The translations under genes were made by a program, and so were the position numbers. The notes under the pieces are model-generated. The model had not been told where the DNA came from, searched no databases, and saw only the letters and a program-made list of their open reading frames with translations. DNA of 64,000 bases, from the NCBI RefSeq assembly GCF_003019035.1, contig NZ_CP027447.1; one strand, given 5' to 3'. Positions 2,948-56,825 of this stretch are shown one piece after another (the first letter of the stretch is position 1; every line of letters starts with the position of its first letter). The DNA comes from Escherichia coli. GTDB taxonomy: Bacteria > Pseudomonadota > Gammaproteobacteria > Enterobacterales > Enterobacteriaceae.

Positions 2948-3934
2948 ATGATACGTTTCGCTGTGATTGGTACGAACTGGATCACTCGCCAGTTCGTCGA
3001 GGCCGCCCATGAGAGCGGTAAATACAAGTTAACTGCCGTTTATTCCCGCAGTCTTGAACAGGCCCAGCACTTCGCCAATGATTTTTCTGTCGAGCATCTG
3101 TTTACGTCGCTGGAAGCGATGGCAGAAAGCGATGCCATTGACGCGGTGTATATTGCCAGCCCGAATTCCCTGCACTTTTCCCAGACACAACTTTTCCTTA
3201 GTCACAAAATTCATGTGATTTGCGAGAAGCCACTGGCGTCGAATCTGGCGGAAGTGGATGCCGCCATTGCCTGTGCGCGGGAAAATCAGGTGGTGCTGTT
3301 TGAGGCATTTAAAACCGCCAGCCTGCCGAACTTTCATCTGTTGCGCCAGGCGCTGCCGAAAGTCGGCAAACTGCGTAAAGTCTTTTTTAACTATTGCCAG
3401 TATTCCTCGCGGTATCAACGTTACCTGGATGGTGAGAATCCCAACACCTTTAATCCGGCATTCTCTAACGGTTCAATTATGGATATCGGCTTTTACTGTC
3501 TGGCGTCAGCGGTGGCGTTATTTGGTGAGCCGAAAAGCGTGCAGGCAACCGCCAGTTTGTTGGCAAGCGGCGTAGATGCCCACGGCGTGGTGGTGATGGA
3601 TTACGGTGATTTCAGCGTTACGTTGCAGCACTCAAAAGTGAGCGATTCTGTCCTGGCAAGCGAGATTCAGGGCGAAGCGGGATCGCTGGTGATTGAAAAA
3701 CTGTCTGAATGCCAGAAAGTTTGCTTTGTTCCGCGTGGCAGCCAGATGCAGGATCTCACCCAACCGCAGCATATTAATACCATGCTCTACGAAGCAGAGC
3801 TGTTCGCTACCCTGGTGGATGAGCATCTGGTGGATCATCCAGGGCTGGCGGTCAGTCGCATCACCGCCAAACTGCTGACCGAGATCCGCCGCCAGACTAG
3901 GGTGATTTTTCCGGCAGATAGCGTAAAACTATAA
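2948..3934 (+). CDS. ygjR: Gfo/Idh/MocA-type NAD(P)-dependent oxidoreductase YgjR
   Basis: ORF 2930-3934; Rossmann N-terminus (IRFAVIGTNWI); start placed at MIRF (328 aa); start uncertain by 6 codons. Confidence 0.78.
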   Translation: MIRFAVIGTNWITRQFVEAAHESGKYKLTAVYSRSLEQAQHFANDFSVEHLFTSLEAMAESDAIDAVYIASPNSLHFSQTQLFLSHKIHVICEKPLASNLAEVDAAIACARENQVVLFEAFKTASLPNFHLLRQALPKVGKLRKVFFNYCQYSSRYQRYLDGENPNTFNPAFSNGSIMDIGFYCLASAVALFGEPKSVQATASLLASGVDAHGVVVMDYGDFSVTLQHSKVSDSVLASEIQGEAGSLVIEKLSECQKVCFVPRGSQMQDLTQPQHINTMLYEAELFATLVDEHLVDHPGLAVSRITAKLLTEIRRQTRVIFPADSVKL

Positions 3935-4007
3935 ATTGCCAAAGTAAAACAGTGTAAAAGGTATGTAACAGACCATTGACTGACTGAATGGTCTGTCATA
4001 CTTTGTT

Positions 4008-4217
4008 ACCTGCAAAGGGGAGTAACTTCATTGCCGGTCGATCGTCATTACGATGTGTGAAAAACCACATCCGGTCACCGGGCAACCCGAAAGGAATACG
4101 CAGACGTATTCCTTTTTTGTTGTAAGTGAGACCTTGCCGGAAGGCGAGGTCTATGCATAAAAAGCAGCGGCTGACGTCTTCCGACGTTGGCCGTTTTTTT
4201 ATGTGTAAGGAACTTCT
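4008..4217 (+). promoter_or_regulatory. alx 5' leader: structured RNA element (pH-responsive element / yybP-ykoY-type riboswitch) with an internal terminator-like hairpin plus U-tract at about 4168-4200
   Basis: About 210 nt untranslated leader before alx; hairpin cggctgacgtcttccgacgttggccg followed by ttttttt just upstream of the start codon; alx is known to carry such a leader. Confidence 0.55.
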
Positions 4218-5183
4218 ATGAATACTGTCGGCACGCCGTTGCTATGGGGCGGATTCGCTGTTGTTGTCACCATTATGCTGGCTATCGACCTGTTGTTGCA
4301 GGGGCGTCGTGGGGCACATGCCATGACCATGAAACAGGCTGCGGCCTGGTCGCTGGTCTGGGTGACGCTGTCGTTACTGTTTAACGCCGCTTTCTGGTGG
4401 TATCTGGTGCAAACCGAAGGTCGCGCCGTTGCCGATCCACAGGCACTGGCCTTCCTCACCGGTTATCTGATTGAGAAATCGCTGGCGGTCGATAACGTCT
4501 TTGTCTGGCTGATGTTGTTCAGCTATTTCTCTGTTCCGGCGGCATTACAACGTCGCGTGCTGGTGTATGGCGTGCTCGGGGCGATTGTTCTGCGTACCAT
4601 CATGATCTTCACTGGTAGCTGGCTGATTTCACAGTTCGACTGGATCTTGTATATCTTCGGTGCCTTCCTGCTGTTTACCGGCGTGAAGATGGCGCTCGCC
4701 CATGAAGATGAATCAGGCATTGGCGACAAGCCGCTGGTGCGCTGGCTACGCGGTCATTTACGCATGACCGACACCATCGACAACGAGCATTTCTTTGTGC
4801 GTAAGAATGGTTTGTTGTATGCCACGCCGCTGATGCTGGTGCTGATTCTGGTGGAGTTGAGCGACGTGATTTTCGCCGTGGATAGTATTCCGGCTATCTT
4901 CGCCGTGACCACCGATCCGTTTATTGTGCTGACCTCAAACCTGTTTGCGATCCTCGGCCTGCGTGCGATGTATTTCCTGCTGGCAGGTGTGGCAGAGCGT
5001 TTCTCGATGCTCAAATATGGTCTGGCGGTGATTCTGGTGTTTATCGGTATCAAGATGCTGATTGTCGACTTCTACCATATTCCGATCGCCGTCTCGCTGG
5101 GCGTGGTGTTTGGCATTCTGGTGATGACGTTTATTATCAACGCCTGGGTGAATTATCGGCATGATAAGCAGCGGGTTGGATGA
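4218..5183 (+). CDS. alx: TerC-family inner membrane protein Alx
   Basis: 321 aa multi-pass membrane ORF; recognised sequence; synteny. Confidence 0.88.
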
Positions 5184-46876: not shown

Positions 46877-47212
46877 ATGCCCGCTAATGCTCGCTCTCAC
46901 GCTGTACTGACCACTGAATCAAAGGTCACGATACGCGGACAAACAACTATCCCCGCGCCAGTGCGTGAGGCCTTAAAACTGAAGCCAGGCCTGGACAGCA
47001 TTCATTACGAAATTCTGCCTGGTGGGCAAGTATTTATGTGCCGACTGGGAGATGAACAGGAGGATCATACTATGAATGCATTTTTGCGTTTTCTGGATGC
47101 AGATATCCAGAACAACCCGCAAAAAACTCGTCCATTCAACATTCAACAAGGAAAGAAACTTGTCGCTGGCATGGACGTCAACATTGATGATGAGATTGGC
47201 GACGACGAATAA
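46877..47212 (+). CDS. prlF: antitoxin PrlF (SohA), AbrB/SpoVT-type
   Basis: 111 aa; acidic C-terminal tail (DDEIGDDE); stop overlaps the yhaV start. Confidence 0.88.
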   Translation: MPANARSHAVLTTESKVTIRGQTTIPAPVREALKLKPGLDSIHYEILPGGQVFMCRLGDEQEDHTMNAFLRFLDADIQNNPQKTRPFNIQQGKKLVAGMDVNIDDEIGDDE

Positions 47213-47676
47213 TGGATTTTCCACAAAGGGTTAATGGTTGGGCGCTATATGCTCATCCCTGTTTCCAGGAAACCTACGACGCTTTAGTTGCCGAAGTCGA
47301 GACATTAAAGGGAAAAGATCCTGAAAATTATCAGAGAAAAGCCGCCACAAAGTTATTGGCGGTAGTCCATAAAGTGATTGAGGAGCATATCACGGTCAAT
47401 CCATCATCACCGGCATTCCGTCATGGCAAGTCGTTAGGCTCTGGGAAAAATAAAGACTGGTCACGGGTAAAATTTGGTGCTGGTCGTTATCGTCTCTTCT
47501 TTCGTTATAGTGAAAAAGAGAAAGTCATCATTCTGGGATGGATGAACGATGAAAACACTCTGCGCACCTACGGTAAAAAAACAGATGCCTATACCGTATT
47601 CAGCAAAATGTTAAAAAGAGGACATCCTCCTGCCGACTGGGAAACCCTCACCCGAGAGACAGAAGAAACCCATTGA
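47212..47676 (+). CDS. yhaV: ribonuclease toxin YhaV (RelE/ParE superfamily)
   Basis: 154 aa; ATG overlaps the prlF stop (ATGA-type overlap at 47212). Confidence 0.88.
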   Translation: MDFPQRVNGWALYAHPCFQETYDALVAEVETLKGKDPENYQRKAATKLLAVVHKVIEEHITVNPSSPAFRHGKSLGSGKNKDWSRVKFGAGRYRLFFRYSEKEKVIILGWMNDENTLRTYGKKTDAYTVFSKMLKRGHPPADWETLTRETEETH

Positions 47677-47730
47677 TGGTGTTCACAATGCCCGCCGAAC
47701 GCATTCGTGTTGACCAGCGGGCACCCTTTC

Positions 47731-48540
47731 TCACTCCCCGACCAGAATCACTTCAACCCCAGCCTTTCGCAGGCCTTCCAGACTATCCGCAGGAATGCCT
47801 TCATCAACAATGATCATGTCGATACGTTGAGTATCAATGATCTTATGTAAACTGGAACGATTGAACTTACTGGAATCGGTGACCACGATGATCCGTTCCG
47901 CAACTTCGCACATCCGACGGTTTAAACGGGCTTCATCTTCATTATGCGTGCTGACGCCGCGCTCCAGATCGATCGCATCTACACCAAGAAACAGCATATC
48001 GAAGTGGTAATTTTGCAGCGATTGCTCAGCCTGATCACCGTAAAAAGATTGCGACTGACGGCGCAAATGCCCTCCGGTCATCAGCAGCTCAACGCCTTCC
48101 GCTTCCAGCAACGCATTAGCCACGTTCATACCGTTGGTCATCGCAATTACGTCGGTGTGCTTGCGCATCAGACGAGCAATCTCAAAAGTGGTGGTCCCGG
48201 AATCGAGGATCACCCGATGACCTGGCTGAATCAACTCAACGGCAGCTTTCGCAACGCTGCGTTTCATTGCGGTGTTCAGCGCGCTTTTATCTTCCACTGA
48301 TGGCTCGACTGACGGCGTCGTGCTATCGCAGATCAACGCGCCGCCATAGGCACGCACAGCGATCCCCTGCTTTTCCAGAAACGCCAGATCGTTGCGGATC
48401 GTCACAGTAGATACGCCATACAATGCCGACAGATCGTTAACCTGCACACTTCCTTGCTGGCGCAGGCGTTGAATGATCTGCTCTCGTCGCTCACTGGTGC
48501 CTGTCACTCGCTTCTCGCCTGAAGCGTCGGTATTACTCAT
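47731..48540 (-). CDS. agaR: DeoR-family repressor of the aga regulon, AgaR
   Basis: 269 aa; DeoR-type N-terminal helix-turn-helix and sugar-binding C-terminus. Confidence 0.88.
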
Positions 48541-48788
48541 AGTAAGTCCTTTCGTAAAACTTTCGTTTCATTTCGTTTTGCCTATTAACGCCTTTCTATT
48601 AAGCAAATGCAAGCCCACCTTACCCATTGGCGCAAGCTACTCTCGTTTCAGTGGCTTTCATTATGTTTCTTTTGTGAATCAGATCAGAAAACTATTATCT
48701 TTCGTTTTATTTTTATCTCACCATGGCGCAGTATCAACTGAAACAAAACGAAAGATTAATATCGCAGTAATCTGAACTGGAGAGGAAA
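48541..48788. promoter_or_regulatory. agaR / kbaZ divergent promoter region with repeated CTTTCGTTT-type motifs (AgaR-operator-like)
   Basis: Repeats ctttcgtaaaactttcgtttcatttcgtttt, tctttcgttttat and aaacaaaacgaaag in the intergenic region. Confidence 0.5.
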
Positions 48789-50069
48789 GTGAAACATCTG
48801 ACAGAAATGGTGAGACAGCACAAAGAGGGCAAAACAAATGGGATTTATGCCGTTTGTTCCGCACATCCGCTGGTGCTGGAAGCTGCAATCCGCTACGCCA
48901 GTGCAAACCAAACGCCGTTACTGATTGAAGCAACCTCCAATCAGGTGGACCAGTTCGGCGGTTATACCGGAATGACGCCCGCCGATTTTCGCGGCTTTGT
49001 TTGTCAGCTCGCCGACTCGTTGAATTTCCCACAGGATGCGTTGATTCTGGGTGGCGACCATCTGGGGCCAAACCGCTGGCAAAACCTGCCTGCCGCTCAG
49101 GCAATGGCCAATGCCGATGATTTGATTAAAAGCTACGTGGCGGCAGGATTCAAAAAAATTCACCTTGATTGCAGCATGTCCTGTCAGGACGATCCGATTC
49201 CCTTAACTGATGACATCGTGGCCGAACGCGCCGCTCGTCTGGCGAAAGTGGCGGAAGAAACCTGCCGTGAACATTTTGGCGCGGCCGATCTGGAGTATGT
49301 CATTGGTACCGAAGTGCCGGTGCCTGGCGGCGCGCATGAAACCTTAAGCGAGCTGGCGGTCACCACGCCGGATGCCGCCCGCGCCACACTGGAAGCCCAT
49401 CGCCACGCCTTTGAAAAGCAGGGCCTGAATGCCATCTGGCCACGCATTATTGCCCTGGTGGTTCAACCCGGCGTCGAATTCGATCACACCAACGTTATTG
49501 ATTATCAGCCAGCTAAAGCGACCGCCTTAAGCCAGATGGTCGAAAACTACGAAACGCTGATTTTCGAAGCGCACTCAACCGATTACCAAACGCCGCAATC
49601 GTTGCGCCAGCTGGTGATTGACCACTTTGCCATTCTGAAAGTTGGCCCGGCGCTGACCTTCGCCCTGCGTGAAGCTCTGTTCTCTCTGGCGGCGATTGAA
49701 GAAGAACTGGTACCAGCAAAAGCCTGTTCTGGTCTGCGTCAGGTGCTGGAAAACGTGATGCTCGACCGCCCGGAATACTGGCAAAGCCACTACCACGGTG
49801 ACGGCAACGCGCGTCGTCTGGCGCGTGGTTATAGCTACTCGGATCGCGTGCGCTATTACTGGCCGGACAGCCAGATTGATGACGCTTTCGCTCATCTGGT
49901 TCGTAATCTGGCGGATTCACCAATTCCGCTACCGCTCATCAGCCAGTATTTGCCGCTGCAATACGTGAAAGTTCGCTCCGGCGAGCTGCAGCCAACACCA
50001 CGGGAACTCATTATCAACCATATTCAGGACATCCTGGCGCAGTACCACACAGCCTGTGAAGGCCAATAA
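48789..50069 (+). CDS. kbaZ: tagatose-bisphosphate aldolase non-catalytic subunit KbaZ (AgaZ)
   Basis: 426 aa; recognised sequence. Confidence 0.88.
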
Positions 50070-50091
50070 GCAAAACAAAGAGGAACACGCT

Positions 50092-50565
50092 ATGCCAAAT
50101 ATTGTTTTAAGCCGGATTGATGAGCGTTTGATTCACGGTCAGGTCGGCGTTCAGTGGGTCGGATTTGCGGGGGCAAATCTGGTGCTGGTAGCCAACGATG
50201 AGGTTGCCGAAGATCCGGTACAACAAAACCTGATGGAAATGGTACTGGCAGAAGGGATCGCCGTACGTTTCTGGACGCTGCAAAAAGTCATCGACAACAT
50301 TCATCGCGCCGCCGATCGACAGAAAATCCTGCTGGTTTGTAAAACACCTGCCGATTTCCTGACGCTGGTAAAAGGTGGCGTTCCGGTGAATCGCATTAAC
50401 GTTGGCAATATGCACTACGCCAATGGCAAGCAACAAATCGCCAAAACGGTTTCTGTGGATGCGGGTGATATCGCAGCATTTAACGACCTGAAAGCCGCTG
50501 GGGTGGAATGCTTCGTTCAGGGCGTCCCGACAGAGCCTGCAGTGGACCTCTTTAAATTACTTTGA
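50092..50565 (+). CDS. agaV: PTS N-acetylgalactosamine-specific IIB component AgaV
   Basis: ORF trimmed to MPNIVLSRIDERLIHGQVG... (157 aa); mannose-family IIB. Confidence 0.85.
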   Translation: MPNIVLSRIDERLIHGQVGVQWVGFAGANLVLVANDEVAEDPVQQNLMEMVLAEGIAVRFWTLQKVIDNIHRAADRQKILLVCKTPADFLTLVKGGVPVNRINVGNMHYANGKQQIAKTVSVDAGDIAAFNDLKAAGVECFVQGVPTEPAVDLFKLL

Positions 50566-50575
50566 GGGATTCATC

Positions 50576-51355
50576 ATGGAAATCAGTCTGTTGCAGGCAT
50601 TCGCGTTGGGCATTATCGCCTTTATCGCTGGCCTGGATATGTTTAACGGCCTAACCCATATGCACCGCCCGGTGGTCCTCGGCCCGTTGGTCGGGCTGGT
50701 ACTTGGCGATCTGCATACCGGTATTTTAACCGGCGGTACGCTGGAACTGGTGTGGATGGGGCTGGCCCCGCTGGCGGGCGCACAGCCGCCTAACGTGATT
50801 ATCGGTACTATCGTCGGCACGGCGTTTGCCATTACTACTGGCGTGAAACCCGATGTCGCGGTCGGTGTCGCCGTACCTTTCGCTGTCGCAGTACAGATGG
50901 GGATTACCTTCCTGTTCTCGGTGATGTCCGGCGTGATGTCCCGATGCGACCGGATGGCGGAGAACGCCGATACTCGCGGCATTGAACGCGTGAACTATCT
51001 GGCACTGCTGGCACTCGGCACTTTCTATTTTCTCTGCGCTTTCCTGCCTATCTACTTCGGCGCGGAACATGCAAAAACCATCATTGATGTCCTGCCGCAA
51101 CGATTAATCGACGGCCTCGGCGTCGCGGGCGGCATCATGCCAGCAATCGGTTTTGCCGTGTTGCTGAAAATCATGATGAAAAACGTCTACATCCCCTACT
51201 TCATCCTGGGCTTTGTTGCCGCAGCCTGGCTCAAGTTACCGGTGTTGGCTATTGCTGCCGCTGCGCTGGCGATGGCGCTGATCGACCTGCTGCGTAAATC
51301 TCCTGAACCGACTCAACCTGCGGCACAGAAAGAGGAATTTGAAGATGGCATCTAA
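50576..51355 (+). CDS. agaW: PTS N-acetylgalactosamine-specific IIC component AgaW (full length)
   Basis: 259 aa mannose-family IIC; intact here, whereas K-12 retains only a truncated remnant as I recall. Confidence 0.8.
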   Translation: MEISLLQAFALGIIAFIAGLDMFNGLTHMHRPVVLGPLVGLVLGDLHTGILTGGTLELVWMGLAPLAGAQPPNVIIGTIVGTAFAITTGVKPDVAVGVAVPFAVAVQMGITFLFSVMSGVMSRCDRMAENADTRGIERVNYLALLALGTFYFLCAFLPIYFGAEHAKTIIDVLPQRLIDGLGVAGGIMPAIGFAVLLKIMMKNVYIPYFILGFVAAAWLKLPVLAIAAAALAMALIDLLRKSPEPTQPAAQKEEFEDGI

Positions 51356-52223
51356 TCAAACCACCCTGCCGAACGTCAGCGAAAATGAAGAAACACTGCT
51401 GACTGGCGTCAATGAAAACGTGTATGAAGATCAGAGCATTGGCGCGGAGCTGACGAAAAAAGATATCAACCGCGTCGCCTGGCGTTCCATGTTGTTACAG
51501 GCTTCTTTCAACTACGAACGTATGCAGGCTTCCGGCTGGCTGTACGGCCTGCTGCCAGCACTGAAAAAGATCCACACTAATAAACGCGACCTGGCGCGCG
51601 CTATGAAGGGGCATATGGGTTTCTTCAATACCCATCCGTTTCTGGTGACGTTTGTTATCGGCATTATCCTTGCGATGGAGCGTTCTAAGCAGGACGTTAA
51701 CAGTATTCAGAGCACCAAAATTGCCGTCGGTGCGCCGCTCGGCGGGATTGGCGATGCGATGTTCTGGCTAACGCTACTGCCGATTTGTGGCGGGATAGGT
51801 GCAAGCCTCGCGCTACAAGGCTCTATTCTTGGCGCTGTCGTCTTTATTGTGCTGTTCAACGTGGTGCACCTGGGGCTGCGTTTTGGTCTGGCGCATTATG
51901 CTTACCGCATGGGCGTGGCGGCGATTCCACTCATTAAAGCAAATACCAAAAAAGTCGGCCATGCTGCGTCTATCGTTGGGATGACGGTAATCGGCGCGCT
52001 GGTGGCAACCTATGTTCGTTTAAGCACCACGCTGGAAATCACAGCGGGCGACGCAGTGGTTAAGTTACAGGCTGATGTTATCGACAAACTGATGCCTGCC
52101 TTCTTACCACTGGTCTACACCCTGACCATGTTCTGGCTGGTACGCCGCGGCTGGAGTCCGCTGCGCCTGATTGCAGTTACCGTGGTTCTCGGCATCGTCG
52201 GTAAATTCTGCCATTTCCTTTAA
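51339..52223 (+). CDS. agaE: PTS N-acetylgalactosamine-specific IID component AgaE
   Basis: 294 aa mannose-family IID; start may be a few codons downstream. Confidence 0.8.
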   Translation: MKMASNQTTLPNVSENEETLLTGVNENVYEDQSIGAELTKKDINRVAWRSMLLQASFNYERMQASGWLYGLLPALKKIHTNKRDLARAMKGHMGFFNTHPFLVTFVIGIILAMERSKQDVNSIQSTKIAVGAPLGGIGDAMFWLTLLPICGGIGASLALQGSILGAVVFIVLFNVVHLGLRFGLAHYAYRMGVAAIPLIKANTKKVGHAASIVGMTVIGALVATYVRLSTTLEITAGDAVVKLQADVIDKLMPAFLPLVYTLTMFWLVRRGWSPLRLIAVTVVLGIVGKFCHFL

Positions 52224-52240
52224 ATACAATGAGGTATTAG

Positions 52241-52675
52241 ATGTTAAGTATTATTTTGACAGGGCATGGCGGGTTTGCCAGCGGCATGGAAAAAGCAATG
52301 AAGCAAATCCTCGGCGAGCAATCGCAGTTTATTGCCATCGATTTTCCCGAAACCTCAAGCACCGCGCTGCTTACATCGCAGCTTGAAGAGGCCATCGTCC
52401 AACTGGATTGTGAAGACGGCATTGTTTTTCTGACGGATTTGCTGGGCGGCACGCCGTTTCGCGTAGCTTCAACGCTGGCGATGCAAAAACCGGGCTGTGA
52501 AGTGATCACCGGCACAAATTTGCAACTATTACTGGAAATGGTGCTGGAGCGCGAAGGGTTAAGCGGTGAAGAGTTCCGTGTGCAGGCGCTGGAGTGTGGA
52601 CACCGTGGGCTGACCAGTCTGGTGGACGAACTTGGTCGCTGCCATGAGGAATGTCCGGTCGAGGAAGGAATATGA
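52241..52675 (+). CDS. agaF: PTS mannose-family IIA component AgaF
   Basis: 144 aa; N-terminal MLSIILTGHGGFA IIA-type motif. Confidence 0.8.
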   Translation: MLSIILTGHGGFASGMEKAMKQILGEQSQFIAIDFPETSSTALLTSQLEEAIVQLDCEDGIVFLTDLLGGTPFRVASTLAMQKPGCEVITGTNLQLLLEMVLEREGLSGEEFRVQALECGHRGLTSLVDELGRCHEECPVEEGI

Positions 52676-53805
52676 CACACGTTCTGCGCGCCAGAAGGCT
52701 GCTGACCGAAGAGGGATGGCTCGATGACCATCAGTTGCGTATTGCTGACGGTGTAATCGCAGCAATCGAACCGATTCCAGTGGGCGTGACTGAACGCGAT
52801 GCGGAACTGCTCTGCCCCGCTTACATCGACACCCATGTACACGGTGGTGCGGGCGTTGATGTAATGGATGACGCGCCGGATGCGCTCGACAAGCTGGCAA
52901 TGCACAAGGCACGCGAAGGTGTCGGCAGTTGGTTACCGACCACCGTAACCGCGCCGCTTAATACCATTCATGCGGCGCTGAAACGTATTGCTCTACGCTG
53001 CCAGCGTGGCGGACCTGGTGCGCAAGCGCTGGGGAGTTATCTCGAAGGACCGTACTTCACGCCGCAGAATAAAGGCGCGCATCCGCCGGAGCTGTTTCGC
53101 GAGCTGGAAATTGCCGAGCTGGATCAATTGATTGCCGTTTCTCAGCACACCTTGCGCGTGGTAGCGCTGGCACCAGAAAAAGAAGGGGCATTGCAGGCCA
53201 TCCGCCATCTTAAACAGCAAAACGTACGGGTGATGCTGGGGCATAGCGCGGCGACCTGGCAACAAACCCGTGCCGCGTTTGACGCTGGTGCCGACGGCCT
53301 GGTGCATTGCTATAACGGGATGACAGGTTTACATCACCGCGAACCGGGAATGGTTGGCGCGGGATTAACGAACAAGCGCGCCTGGCTGGAACTGATAGCC
53401 GATGGTCATCATGTACATCCGGCGGCGATGTCGCTGTGTTGTTGCTGTGCGAAAGAGAGAATCGTGCTGATCACCGACGCGATGCAGGCAGCCGGGATGC
53501 CGGATGGTCGCTATACGTTATGTGGTGAAGAAGTGCAGATGCACGATGGCGTTGTCCGTACCGCGTCCGGTGGGCTGGCGGGCAGTACGCTGTCTGTCGA
53601 TGCGGCAGTGCGCAACATGGTCGAGTTGACGGGCGTAACGCCTGCGGAAGCCATCCATATGGCATCGCTGCATCCGGCGCGTATGCTGGGTGTTGATGGT
53701 GTTCTGGGATCGCTTAAACCGGGCAAACGCGCCAGCGTCGTTGCGCTGGATAGCGGGCTGCATGTGCAACAAATCTGGATTCAGGGTCAATTAGCTTCGT
53801 TTTGA
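52672..53805 (+). CDS. agaA: N-acetylgalactosamine-6-phosphate deacetylase AgaA (full length)
   Basis: ORF trimmed to MTHVLRARRLL... (377 aa); start overlaps the agaF stop; NagA-like amidohydrolase. Confidence 0.82.
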   Translation: MTHVLRARRLLTEEGWLDDHQLRIADGVIAAIEPIPVGVTERDAELLCPAYIDTHVHGGAGVDVMDDAPDALDKLAMHKAREGVGSWLPTTVTAPLNTIHAALKRIALRCQRGGPGAQALGSYLEGPYFTPQNKGAHPPELFRELEIAELDQLIAVSQHTLRVVALAPEKEGALQAIRHLKQQNVRVMLGHSAATWQQTRAAFDAGADGLVHCYNGMTGLHHREPGMVGAGLTNKRAWLELIADGHHVHPAAMSLCCCCAKERIVLITDAMQAAGMPDGRYTLCGEEVQMHDGVVRTASGGLAGSTLSVDAAVRNMVELTGVTPAEAIHMASLHPARMLGVDGVLGSLKPGKRASVVALDSGLHVQQIWIQGQLASF

Positions 53806-53874
53806 TGGTTTGCTCCTTTATTGGGCCTTCACTTCCCCCGTAAGGCCTTTCTTTTTCTTTCGTTGTGCTCTGTG

Positions 53875-53940
53875 CAGGGTGTCGGATGCGACGCTGACGC
53901 GTCTTCTTCGACCTACGGTACGCCGCATCCGGCAATCGGT
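53875..53940. repeat. REP-like palindromic repeats
   Basis: gtcggatgcgacgctgacgcgtcttcttcgacc ... acggtacgccgcatccggca. Confidence 0.6.
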
Positions 53941-53989
53941 GAACATAGCGACGTTATCACGCAATCCTTTAATCTTCCCTTGTCTTTTC

Positions 53990-54154
53990 TTTCAATGATC
54001 ACAAATTTCGTTTTATTTCTTTTTTCTCCATTGAACTTTCAGTTTCTTTTCTATAGATTTTAATCAACGAAAGACATCACCAAGTGAAATGAAACGAAAG
54101 GTAAGCGAAAGCGACAACGCCCGACGTCAAGTTCATCAGACTAAGGATTGAGTT
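53990..54154 (+). promoter_or_regulatory. agaS promoter region with AgaR-operator-like repeats
   Basis: AT-rich region with ctttcagtttctttt, gaaatgaaacgaaag and gcgaaagcg motifs similar to those at agaR/kbaZ. Confidence 0.45.
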
Positions 54155-55309
54155 ATGCCAGAAAATTACACCCCTGCTGCTGCCGCAACCGGTACATGGA
54201 CTGAAGAAGAGATCCGCCATCAGCCTCGCGCATGGATCCGTTCACTCACCAACATCGACGCGCTACGTTCCGCGCTCAATAACTTCCTTGAACCGTTACT
54301 GCGCAAAGAGAATCTGCGGGTAATCCTGACCGGAGCCGGAACCTCGGCATTTATCGGTGACATCATCGCGCCGTGGCTCGCCAGCCATACCGGTAAAAAC
54401 TTCAGCGCCGTACCGACCACCGATCTGGTCACTAATCCGATGGACTACCTGAATCCAGCTCATCCGCTACTGTTGATCTCCTTCGGTCGATCCGGCAACA
54501 GCCCGGAAAGCGTCGCCGCCGTGGAACTGGCGAATCAGTTTGTACCGGAATGCTATCACCTGCCGATCACCTGCAACGAAGCGGGCGCTCTTTACCAAAA
54601 CGCGATCAACAGCGACAACGCGTTTGCCCTGCTGATGCCCGCAGAAACGCACGATCGCGGCTTTGCGATGACCAGCAGCATTACCACCATGATGGCCAGC
54701 TGCCTCGCGGTTTTCGCACCTGAGACGATCAACAGCCAGAGCTTCTGCGACGTGGCGGATCGTTGCCAGGCGATCCTGACCTCACTGGGCGATTTCAGCG
54801 CAGGTGTGTTTGGTTACGCACCGTGGAAACGGATCGTTTATCTCGGCAGCGGTGGCTTACAGGGCGCAGCACGCGAGTCGGCGCTGAAAGTACTGGAACT
54901 GACGGCGGGTAAACTGGCGGCCTTTTATGATTCCCCGACCGGATTCCGTCATGGCCCGAAATCGCTGGTCGATAACGAAACGCTGGTGGTGGTGTTTGTC
55001 TCCAGCCACCCTTACACCCGTCAGTATGATCTTGATCTGCTGGCAGAACTCCGCCGCGATAACCAGGCATTGCGCGTAATCGCCATCGCCGCGGAAAGCA
55101 ACGACGTTATTACCGCCGGTCCACATATCATCCTGCCGCCGTCCCGTCACTTTATCGACGTTGAGCAGGCATTTTGCTTCCTGATGTACGCCCAGACATT
55201 TGCACTGATGCAGTCGCTGCACATGGGTAATACGCCGGATACCCCATCAGCCAGTGGCACCGTTAACCGCGTGGTGCAAGGCGTAATCATTCATCCGTGG
55301 CAGGCATAA
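54155..55309 (+). CDS. agaS: SIS-domain galactosamine-6-phosphate deaminase/isomerase AgaS
   Basis: 384 aa; recognised sequence. Confidence 0.88.
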   Translation: MPENYTPAAAATGTWTEEEIRHQPRAWIRSLTNIDALRSALNNFLEPLLRKENLRVILTGAGTSAFIGDIIAPWLASHTGKNFSAVPTTDLVTNPMDYLNPAHPLLLISFGRSGNSPESVAAVELANQFVPECYHLPITCNEAGALYQNAINSDNAFALLMPAETHDRGFAMTSSITTMMASCLAVFAPETINSQSFCDVADRCQAILTSLGDFSAGVFGYAPWKRIVYLGSGGLQGAARESALKVLELTAGKLAAFYDSPTGFRHGPKSLVDNETLVVVFVSSHPYTRQYDLDLLAELRRDNQALRVIAIAAESNDVITAGPHIILPPSRHFIDVEQAFCFLMYAQTFALMQSLHMGNTPDTPSASGTVNRVVQGVIIHPWQA

Positions 55310-56182
<873 letters not shown>

Positions 56183-56348
56183 TCATTAGTTTTTTATGAT
56201 TTATCCCAATGTACTTCCCGATTAATATCGGGAAGTGCCTTAATGGAAAAGGAGATGACTAAACCTTAATAAATACATCAGTACAATATCGCAACAATAA
56301 TATATTTAAAAAAATTATATTATTCAACTTTATGGTGAGGATTACACA

Positions 56349-56825
56349 ATGAGCAGTCCAAATATTCTCTTAACCCGTATTGATAACCGTCTGGTTCACG
56401 GTCAGGTTGGCGTGACCTGGACATCCACCATCGGTGCGAATCTGTTGGTAGTCGTGGATGATGTTGTCGCTAACGATGATATTCAACAGAAATTAATGGG
56501 TATTACCGCAGAAACCTACGGCTTTGGCATTCGTTTCTTTACTATCGAAAAAACCATTAACGTCATCGGCAAAGCTGCACCGCATCAGAAGATCTTCCTG
56601 ATTTGCCGTACGCCACAAACGGTACGTAAATTGGTAGAAGGTGGTATTGACCTGAAAGATGTCAACGTCGGCAATATGCATTTCTCGGAAGGGAAAAAGC
56701 AAATCAGCAGTAAAGTTTATGTCGATGACCAGGATCTCACGGACTTACATTTTATTAAACAACGTGGCGTGAATGTTTTCATTCAGGACGTCCCTGGCGA
56801 TCAAAAAGAACAAATCCCTGACTAA
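56349..56825 (+). CDS. agaB: PTS galactosamine-specific IIB component AgaB
   Basis: 158 aa; paralogous to agaV (ILLTRIDNRLVHGQVGV). Confidence 0.88.
   Translation: MSSPNILLTRIDNRLVHGQVGVTWTSTIGANLLVVVDDVVANDDIQQKLMGITAETYGFGIRFFTIEKTINVIGKAAPHQKIFLICRTPQTVRKLVEGGIDLKDVNVGNMHFSEGKKQISSKVYVDDQDLTDLHFIKQRGVNVFIQDVPGDQKEQIPD

Follow-up and report, generated by a model that had tools for sequence, protein, structure and literature searches.

The DNA considered here is a 64,000-nucleotide stretch of the Escherichia coli chromosome (hereafter, the window) that carries a complete aga cluster, together with an intact gene for its DeoR-family regulator AgaR (RefSeq annotation, Pfam). Two intergenic gaps of this cluster, agaR-kbaZ and agaA-agaS, are crowded with short TTTC-containing repeats, and these are very probably AgaR operators that govern the E. 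coli aga (N-acetylgalactosamine/galactosamine, or GalNAc/GalN) regulon at its three promoters: the divergent promoters of agaR (P_R) and kbaZ (P_Z), and the promoter of agaS (P_S). A preliminary description of the window had proposed just such multiple AgaR operators at the divergent agaR/kbaZ promoters and at the agaS promoter, and the proposal is sustained by a literature that places AgaR at the same promoters, by operator cores identical to those of strain K-12, by the intact repressor, and by a motif that the two gaps share. The repressor has been known since 2004, as have its physiological role and the fact that it binds at these three promoters, and the finding adds little beyond a correct annotation; it does confirm that the reading of a sequence by itself can recognize a real multi-operator repressor system. 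What is offered here is a base-level map of AgaR sites, with their conservation over some 70 species of the Enterobacterales, which could aid the engineering of GalNAc-inducible promoters and help to interpret agaR and operator mutations. Such mutations recur in adaptive-evolution experiments (PMC9628945, PMC10101011).

RefSeq places agaR, kbaZ, and agaS at exactly the positions where they had previously been called:

47731..48540, minus strand: agaR, DeoR-family repressor gene, an open reading frame of 269 amino acids (RefSeq 'aga operon transcriptional regulator AgaR')
48789..50069, plus strand: kbaZ (agaZ), open reading frame, RefSeq; leads the kbaZ-agaVWEFA operon
54155..55309, plus strand: agaS, open reading frame, RefSeq; leads the agaS-kbaY-agaBCDI operon

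The span first given for the agaR-kbaZ gap (48541-48788) is likewise right; that given for the agaS gap (53990-54154) is not, the gap between agaA and agaS running from 53806 to 54154 (349 bp). The gene names are those of the RefSeq annotation of the matching record of strain SCU-301 (window coordinate = locus coordinate + 41699), with which the segment 47700-54400 is 100% identical; it has a match in 5410 of 5426 complete E. coli genomes. The AgaR protein is intact at 269 amino acids and contains the Pfam domains HTH_DeoR (1.9e-21) and DeoRC (3.3e-55).

Identity of the Sites as AgaR Operators

In 2004 Ray and Larson (Mol Microbiol 51:813) reportedly demonstrated the binding of AgaR at the agaR, agaZ/kbaZ, and agaS promoters, with DNase I footprints on K-12 DNA, and Leyn et al. 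are said to have extended the AgaR sites to the proteobacteria in 2012 (JBC 287:28047); the K-12 sites are curated in RegulonDB/EcoCyc. AgaR binds P_R, P_Z, and P_S, and in a delta-agaR strain the expression of agaA and agaS is constitutive (PMC3668189); the loss of agaR raises the expression of agaV and agaB (PMC9628945). Its sites have been described as tandem repeats (PMC5018945), it is autoregulated by direct binding (PMC4694137), and the formation of AgaR tetramers has been reported (PMC10991401). A RegulonDB-derived listing gives several sites at agaSp and two at agaRp (PMC8265036), an arrangement of CRP plus repressor has been described at aga (PMC12226905), and growth on GalNAc or GalN is known from the literature to induce the aga genes. 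The operator cores in the window are identical to those of K-12 MG1655, the differences being confined to the flanking positions 48654, 53865, and 54102, and the published AgaR results should therefore transfer to the present strain. Window coordinates become K-12 coordinates on the addition of 3230125 in the agaR-kbaZ gap, and of 3227821 in the part of the agaS gap nearest agaS, past the indels of the REP region (about 53877-53955).

One could suppose that the sites belong to some other sugar regulator, say GatR, TagR, or another paralogous member of the DeoR family, or else NagC/Mlc. The half-site unit is indeed not specific to AgaR, since CTTTC-containing operators (CTTTCAAAATGAAAGTAAA) have been predicted for TagR, a paralogous DeoR-family repressor (PMC12226905). 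We nevertheless consider this very unlikely: the motif adjoins agaR in every locus recovered by means of that gene, where it occupies agaR's own promoter and those of the two aga operons; nowhere else in the window does a site score above 8.3 bits on the position weight matrix (PWM) described below; and AgaR binds directly, its mutations derepressing both operons (PMC3668189, PMC9628945).

Enrichment of the Repeats and Definition of the Operator

The repeats are real and their enrichment is confirmed to be well beyond chance. All four exact copies of CTTTCGTTT in the 64 kb lie inside one or the other gap (0.81 expected; at least 4 copies in 0 of 100 shuffles), and when TTTC/GAAA words are counted in 250-bp segments, the two gaps rank at the top of the whole window with 15 and 14 (mean 3.2, standard deviation 1.8). 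Dinucleotide shuffles of each gap gave the same result for TTTC[GA]TTT, which occurs 5 times in the agaR-kbaZ gap (0.11 expected, reached in 0 of 1000 shuffles) and 3 times in the agaS gap (0.23 expected, reached in 2 of 1000). The gaps have eight 11-mers in common against a null mean of 0.11, among them the 15-mer GAAATGAAACGAAAG and the 13-mer TTTCGTTTTATTT. The preliminary description had staked its proposal on an over-represented motif shared by both gaps, and by shared words, shuffles, PWM, and the spaced core considered below such a motif is clearly present.

Every repeat quoted in that description was found, namely ctttcgtaaaactttcgtttcatttcgtttt (48549-48579), tctttcgttttat (48698-48710), gaaatgaaacgaaag (54086-54100), and gcgaaagcg (54105-54113); they are not all part of the motif. 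Read on the opposite strand, the first 'cctttcg' (48548-48554) is the Shine-Dalgarno sequence of agaR, GAAAGG followed after 8 nt by ATG, and it scores -17.5 bits on the PWM, and gcgaaagcg scores -5.2 bits and is not conserved outside Escherichia.

The operator was approached by way of a 24-nt sequence, 5'-WRMMTTTCRTTTYRTTTYNYTTKK-3', taken here as the published AgaR consensus; a search of literature text did not find the string. At a tolerance of up to 3 mismatches it has five matches, two of them perfect, and all lie in the two gaps (0.15 expected). A search for the core CTTTC-N6-TTTC, which is independent of that consensus, likewise yielded five matches, all in the two gaps (0.49 expected); an off-register control, CTTTC-N5-TTTC, yielded none there. 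The five consensus matches were used as seeds for a PWM, which was scored both with each seed left out in turn and against the whole 64-kb background on both strands. The seed sites score 29-34 bits, or 14-27 bits when left out, and the best score elsewhere in the 64 kb is 8.3 bits; the matrix is thus not circular, given the distance between the leave-one-out scores and the best background score. Two further matches that were not seeds lie at 48696-48719 (15.4 bits) and 53844-53867 (13.0 bits). The operator is some 24 bp long and made up of TTTC units in 5- and 10-bp phase, around the conserved core CTTTC-R-TTT-Y-R-TTTC. An independent search for repeats returned direct-repeat families and, on either side of each core promoter, the arms of an inverted pair: 48697-48712 with 48741-48756 (94% complementary) and 54006-54019 with 54086-54099 (93% complementary).

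Conservation across the Enterobacterales

A search with AgaR recovered 80 loci, all of them by way of the agaR gene, so that what follows measures the conservation of the sites and not their co-occurrence with the gene. The genera include Escherichia, Salmonella, Citrobacter, Klebsiella, Enterobacter, Yersinia, Serratia, Pantoea, and Mixta. In all recovered loci kbaZ is divergent from agaR, in most agaS lies downstream, and in 66 of 74 loci agaR and kbaZ are separated by a gap of 248-251 bp. We designate the sites of the kbaZ gap O_R and O_Z1 to O_Z3 and those of the agaS gap O_S0 to O_S3; the PWM scan resolves six of them as 24-bp sites (O_R, O_Z1, O_Z2, O_Z3, O_S1, and O_S3), next to two weaker elements (O_S0 and O_S2). 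Counting sites above 10 bits, O_R is present at -232 (plus strand) from the kbaZ start in 73 of 74 loci, O_Z1 at -137 (plus) in 72, O_Z2 at -93 (plus) in about 51, and O_Z3 at -55 (minus) in about 70; from the agaS start, O_S1 lies at about -153 (plus) in 48 of 50 loci and O_S3 at about -76 (minus) in 49. In 79 of 82 loci (~20 kb each) the 15-mer core CTTTCRTTTYRTTTC is found at the orthologous O_R, O_Z3, and O_S3 positions, with one extra match in locus L007.

The distances between sites are similarly constant. O_Z1 and O_Z3 are 82 bp apart in 65 of 71 loci, O_Z1 and O_Z2 44 bp apart in 52 of 59, and O_S1 and O_S3 77-79 bp apart in all 49; between O_R and O_Z1 the spacing is 95-98 bp in 66 of 71 loci (range 91-98), despite the unconserved sequence that intervenes. 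In alignments of 13-14 genera the sites appear as footprint-like invariant blocks, and the sequence between them is unconserved.

These data also bear on the view that the repeats are generic T-rich, low-complexity intergenic DNA (UP elements, curved DNA, or H-NS, Fis, or IHF sites) and not the sites of a specific regulator. Both gaps are AT-rich (37% and 44% GC), and an unconstrained expectation-maximization motif model, tried without an overlap constraint and later replaced by the seed PWM, collapsed to poly-T, which reflects a general T bias on one strand. Against this, dinucleotide-preserving shuffles of the gaps fail to reproduce the motif, and the N5 spacing gave no match in the gaps where the N6 spacing gave five; C and G positions are invariant across the genera, with the position and orientation of the sites maintained; and the kbaY-agaB gap, which the preliminary description would have included in the motif search, has no copy although it is more AT-rich (28% GC). 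Generic T-richness is thus an extremely improbable explanation.

In three loci no agaVWEF phosphotransferase system genes were detected, kbaZ being followed there directly by agaA and agaS: those of Salmonella enterica subsp. diarizonae (L016) and subsp. arizonae (L023) and of a Citrobacter sp. (L017). In L016, the only one of them with its sites listed, O_R, O_Z1, and O_Z3 are still present, so that at least in this locus the arrangement of the regulatory sites persists without the transporter genes.

Sites and Predicted Promoters of the agaR-kbaZ Gap

The candidate operators and predicted promoter elements of this gap are the following; mismatches are to the 24-nt consensus and scores are those of the PWM.

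48557..48580, plus strand: O_R, strong operator, AAACTTTCGTTTCATTTCGTTTTG; 24/24 to the consensus; 34.3 bits, 27.1 leave-one-out
48582..48613, minus strand: predicted P_R (agaR promoter); columns invariant across 14 genera
48652..48675, plus strand: O_Z1, operator, TGGCTTTCATTATGTTTCTTTTGT; 2 mismatches; 29.3 bits, 14.0 leave-one-out
48673..48688, no strand assigned: CRP-like site, TGTGAatcagaTCAGA; 1 mismatch to TGTGA-N6-TCACA; conserved across genera
48696..48719, plus strand: O_Z2, weaker operator, TATCTTTCGTTTTATTTTTATCTC; not a seed; 15.4 bits against a background best of 8.3
48729..48734, plus strand: predicted P_Z -10, CAGTAT (alternative TATCAA, 48732-37); C189, A190, A193, and T194 invariant in 14 genera
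48734..48757, minus strand: O_Z3, inverted operator, AATCTTTCGTTTTGTTTCAGTTGA; 3 mismatches; 32.5 bits, 20.7 leave-one-out

O_R, whose alignment columns are invariant, lies 17 bp from the agaR start codon and overlaps the predicted agaR transcription start. The adjoining conserved blocks are CTATTAA (48582-48588; TTAATAG on the minus strand, -10-like) and AA.GCAAG (48606-48613; CTTGCATT on the minus strand, with a -35-like TTGCAT running from 48612 to 48607), and we infer that they form P_R, with its transcription start inside O_R. Two minus-strand calls of a sigma-70 scan, inside the P_Z region, were tried as P_R and rejected; they do not coincide with the conserved blocks. Between the predicted agaR promoter and O_Z1, the roughly 40 bp from 48614 to 48651 are unconserved across genera.

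O_Z1, in which CTTTC and TTTCTTTTG are invariant in the alignment, overlaps the left half of the CRP-like site. The CRP-like match is weak when taken by itself, because the window as a whole shows no enrichment of the pattern (32 matches against 27 expected). Its centre (48680.5) is about -61.5 from the likely P_Z start, near 48741-48744, and this position depends on that predicted start. O_Z2 would sit over the -35 region of P_Z, where it makes with O_Z3 a 16-nt inverted repeat (94%), and O_Z3 over the predicted P_Z -10 and start.

Sites and Predicted Promoter of the agaA-agaS Gap

The corresponding elements of the second gap are these.

53823-53848, plus strand: agaA terminator-like hairpin; dG -10.2 kcal/mol, z -1.9
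53844-53867, plus strand: O_S0, weak distal AgaR-like element in the hairpin T-tract, CTTTCTTTTTCTTTCGTTG (53847-53865); 13.0 bits; matches CTTTC-N6-TTTC
53879..53935, no strand assigned: inverted repeat pair of the repetitive extragenic palindrome/bacterial interspersed mosaic element (REP/BIME) type, arms TGTCGGATGCGACG / CGCCGCATCCGGCA, between the agaA terminator and the agaS promoter
54002..54025, plus strand: O_S1, operator, CAAATTTCGTTTTATTTCTTTTTT; 1 mismatch; 33.0 bits, 23.3 leave-one-out
54031..54059, plus strand: predicted P_S, with -35 TTGAAC (54031-36), a 17-bp spacer, and -10 TAGATT (54054-59); invariant columns in 13 genera
54036-54050: O_S2, off-register copy in the P_S spacer, CTTTCAGTTTCTTTT; conserved; 1-3.6 bits
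54080..54103, minus strand: O_S3, strong inverted operator, TACCTTTCGTTTCATTTCACTTGG; 24/24 to the consensus; 33.4 bits, 23.9 leave-one-out

O_S1 abuts the -35 of P_S on its upstream side and makes with O_S3 a 14-nt inverted repeat (93%). The columns of P_S that are invariant in the 13 genera are TTGA, TA.ATT, and, in the spacer, TTTC..TT.CTTT; transcription would start near 54066, which would put O_S3 in the agaS 5' leader at about +15 to +38. O_S2, with its 1-3.6 bits, is therefore a half site at most.

The region of O_S0 is most simply read as a terminator. Many other genera have a homologous hairpin with CCTTTCTTTTCCTTTCG after it, in which TTTC is phased at 5 bp, and the distance between O_S0 and O_S1 is not conserved (47 to 158 bp). 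As a third agaS operator O_S0 was set aside, since it coincides with the terminator T-tract and its spacing is not kept, and it was left as a possibility. We regard as unlikely, without dismissing it, a broader proposal in which O_S0 acts as an auxiliary distal operator, the same sequence being terminator and operator, and in which AgaR tetramers join the divergent promoters into a single repression complex, given that the O_R-O_Z1 distance is kept.

The REP/BIME pair is not part of the regulatory system; it is an insertion, absent from the other genera aligned, and the most variable stretch in comparison with K-12. Copies of the REP core CGGATGCGRCG number 11 in the window, where 3.6 would be expected. 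The pair sets the terminator/T-tract element about 55 bp farther from P_S than in other genera. A further repeat links the T-tract to the predicted agaS start, where CAACGAAAGA (54065-54074) forms a perfect 10-nt inverted repeat with TCTTTCGTTG (53856-53865), 199 bp upstream; among the 13 aligned genera, only E. coli and E. albertii have this proximal copy.

It is scarcely credible that the conserved blocks act as RNA, whether as a leader structure in the 5' untranslated region of agaS or kbaZ or as a small RNA there. O_S3 and O_Z3, being situated at the predicted starts or downstream of them, would be transcribed, and the inverted repeats could pair in principle. Their partner arms O_S1 and O_Z2, however, lie upstream of those starts and would be missing from that transcript; the motif is found in either orientation and also at the divergent agaR promoter; what is conserved is the sequence itself, with no covariation; and no Rfam family was found at E<=1 across 47500-56500.

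Weighing AgaR Control of the Three Promoters

Some observations weigh against the assignment of the repeats to AgaR and of the three promoters to its control. The string of the 24-nt consensus that was used did not turn up in the literature text searched. The sites O_Z2, O_S0, and O_S2 are weak, and O_S2 scores below the background maximum. Moreover, a simple sigma-70 consensus scan called neither P_Z nor P_S (at P_S with a threshold of 9/12). These missed calls fit weak, activator-dependent promoters, and the assignments of P_Z, P_S, and P_R are as yet unproven.

If the AgaR operators are as mapped, the positions of sites relative to promoter elements, which depend on predicted hexamers and starts, suggest how repression might work. 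In uninduced cells AgaR, reportedly a tetramer, would occupy the operators and exclude RNA polymerase and, at P_Z, CRP as well. With O_R over the probable agaR start, the repressor would limit its own synthesis. At P_Z, O_Z1 would overlap the CRP-like site, with O_Z2 placed over the -35 and the inverted O_Z3 over the -10 and start; the agaS promoter would be bracketed by O_S1, upstream of its -35, and by the inverted O_S3 in the leader, with the partial copy in the spacer between. Growth on GalNAc or GalN would lift this repression.

The preliminary description had further suggested cooperative or looping repression, which we judge plausible but unproven. Inverted pairs of operators lie on both sides of P_Z (38 bp apart) and of P_S (78 bp apart), and the repressor is reported to be oligomeric (PMC10991401); multiple operators, inverted pairs at the core promoters, conserved spacing, and a tetrameric repressor together make looping plausible. 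On the other side, the spacings of 38, 44, 78, 82, and 96 bp are not consistently whole turns of 10.5 bp, and that of O_R to O_Z1 varies from 91 to 98 bp; no experimental demonstration of an AgaR loop was found in the papers on aga that were consulted.

Comparison with Known Systems

The closest counterpart is the set of AgaR operators of the K-12 aga regulon, with the same locus, the same P_R, P_Z, and P_S, the same operator cores, and the same repressor family. There is no difference of substance, apart from the agaWEFA segment that the present strain keeps and K-12 has lost, and from the REP element upstream of P_S. In the segment 50576-53805 of the window, agaW, agaE, agaF, and agaA are intact, and in K-12 MG1655 (positions 3702-4626 of locus L082) a known deletion leaves the pseudogenes agaW' and agaA'.

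The operator arrays of GlpR and DeoR (glp, deo) resemble the aga arrangement in their oligomeric repressor built of HTH_DeoR and DeoRC, in the several operators laid over -35, -10, and start, in co-regulation by CRP (probable at aga), and in a repressor gene that is autoregulated or adjacent; the recognition sequence differs, the AgaR sites consisting of phased TTTC units in direct repeat. For deo, looping has been experimentally shown. The TagR system of the tagatose cluster of E. coli Nissle shares with aga the divergent layout of regulator and operon, an upstream CRP site (CRP-like at aga), a DeoR-family repressor, and CTTTC-containing operators in opposite orientations around the start; it differs in operator sequence (CTTTCAAAATGAAAG) and spacing, and has only two TagR operators, which are predictions (PMC12226905).

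Other Features of the Locus

Among the remaining genes of the two operons annotated by RefSeq are the following.

Between kbaZ and agaA: agaV, agaW, agaE, and agaF
52672-53805: agaA (labelled nagA by PGAP, the annotation pipeline)
Other genes of the agaS operon: kbaY, agaB, agaC, agaD, and agaI

In the kbaY-agaB gap there is a perfect 22-bp palindrome, CTTCCCGATTAATATCGGGAAG (56214-56235), which in the predicted fold makes a hairpin with a 12-bp stem (z -2.9) with no T-run after it. Neither K-12 nor E. coli E69 has this exact sequence, and most orthologous gaps contain no comparable hairpin. A TTTCGTTT/AAACGAAA word is present in only one of 13 orthologous kbaY-agaB gaps, that of Citrobacter youngae (L009); it may be there by chance, or it may be a lineage-specific extra AgaR site ahead of agaB. 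At the other end of the cluster, just past the 3' end of agaR and convergent with it, lies a prlF-yhaV type II toxin-antitoxin pair (46877-47676).

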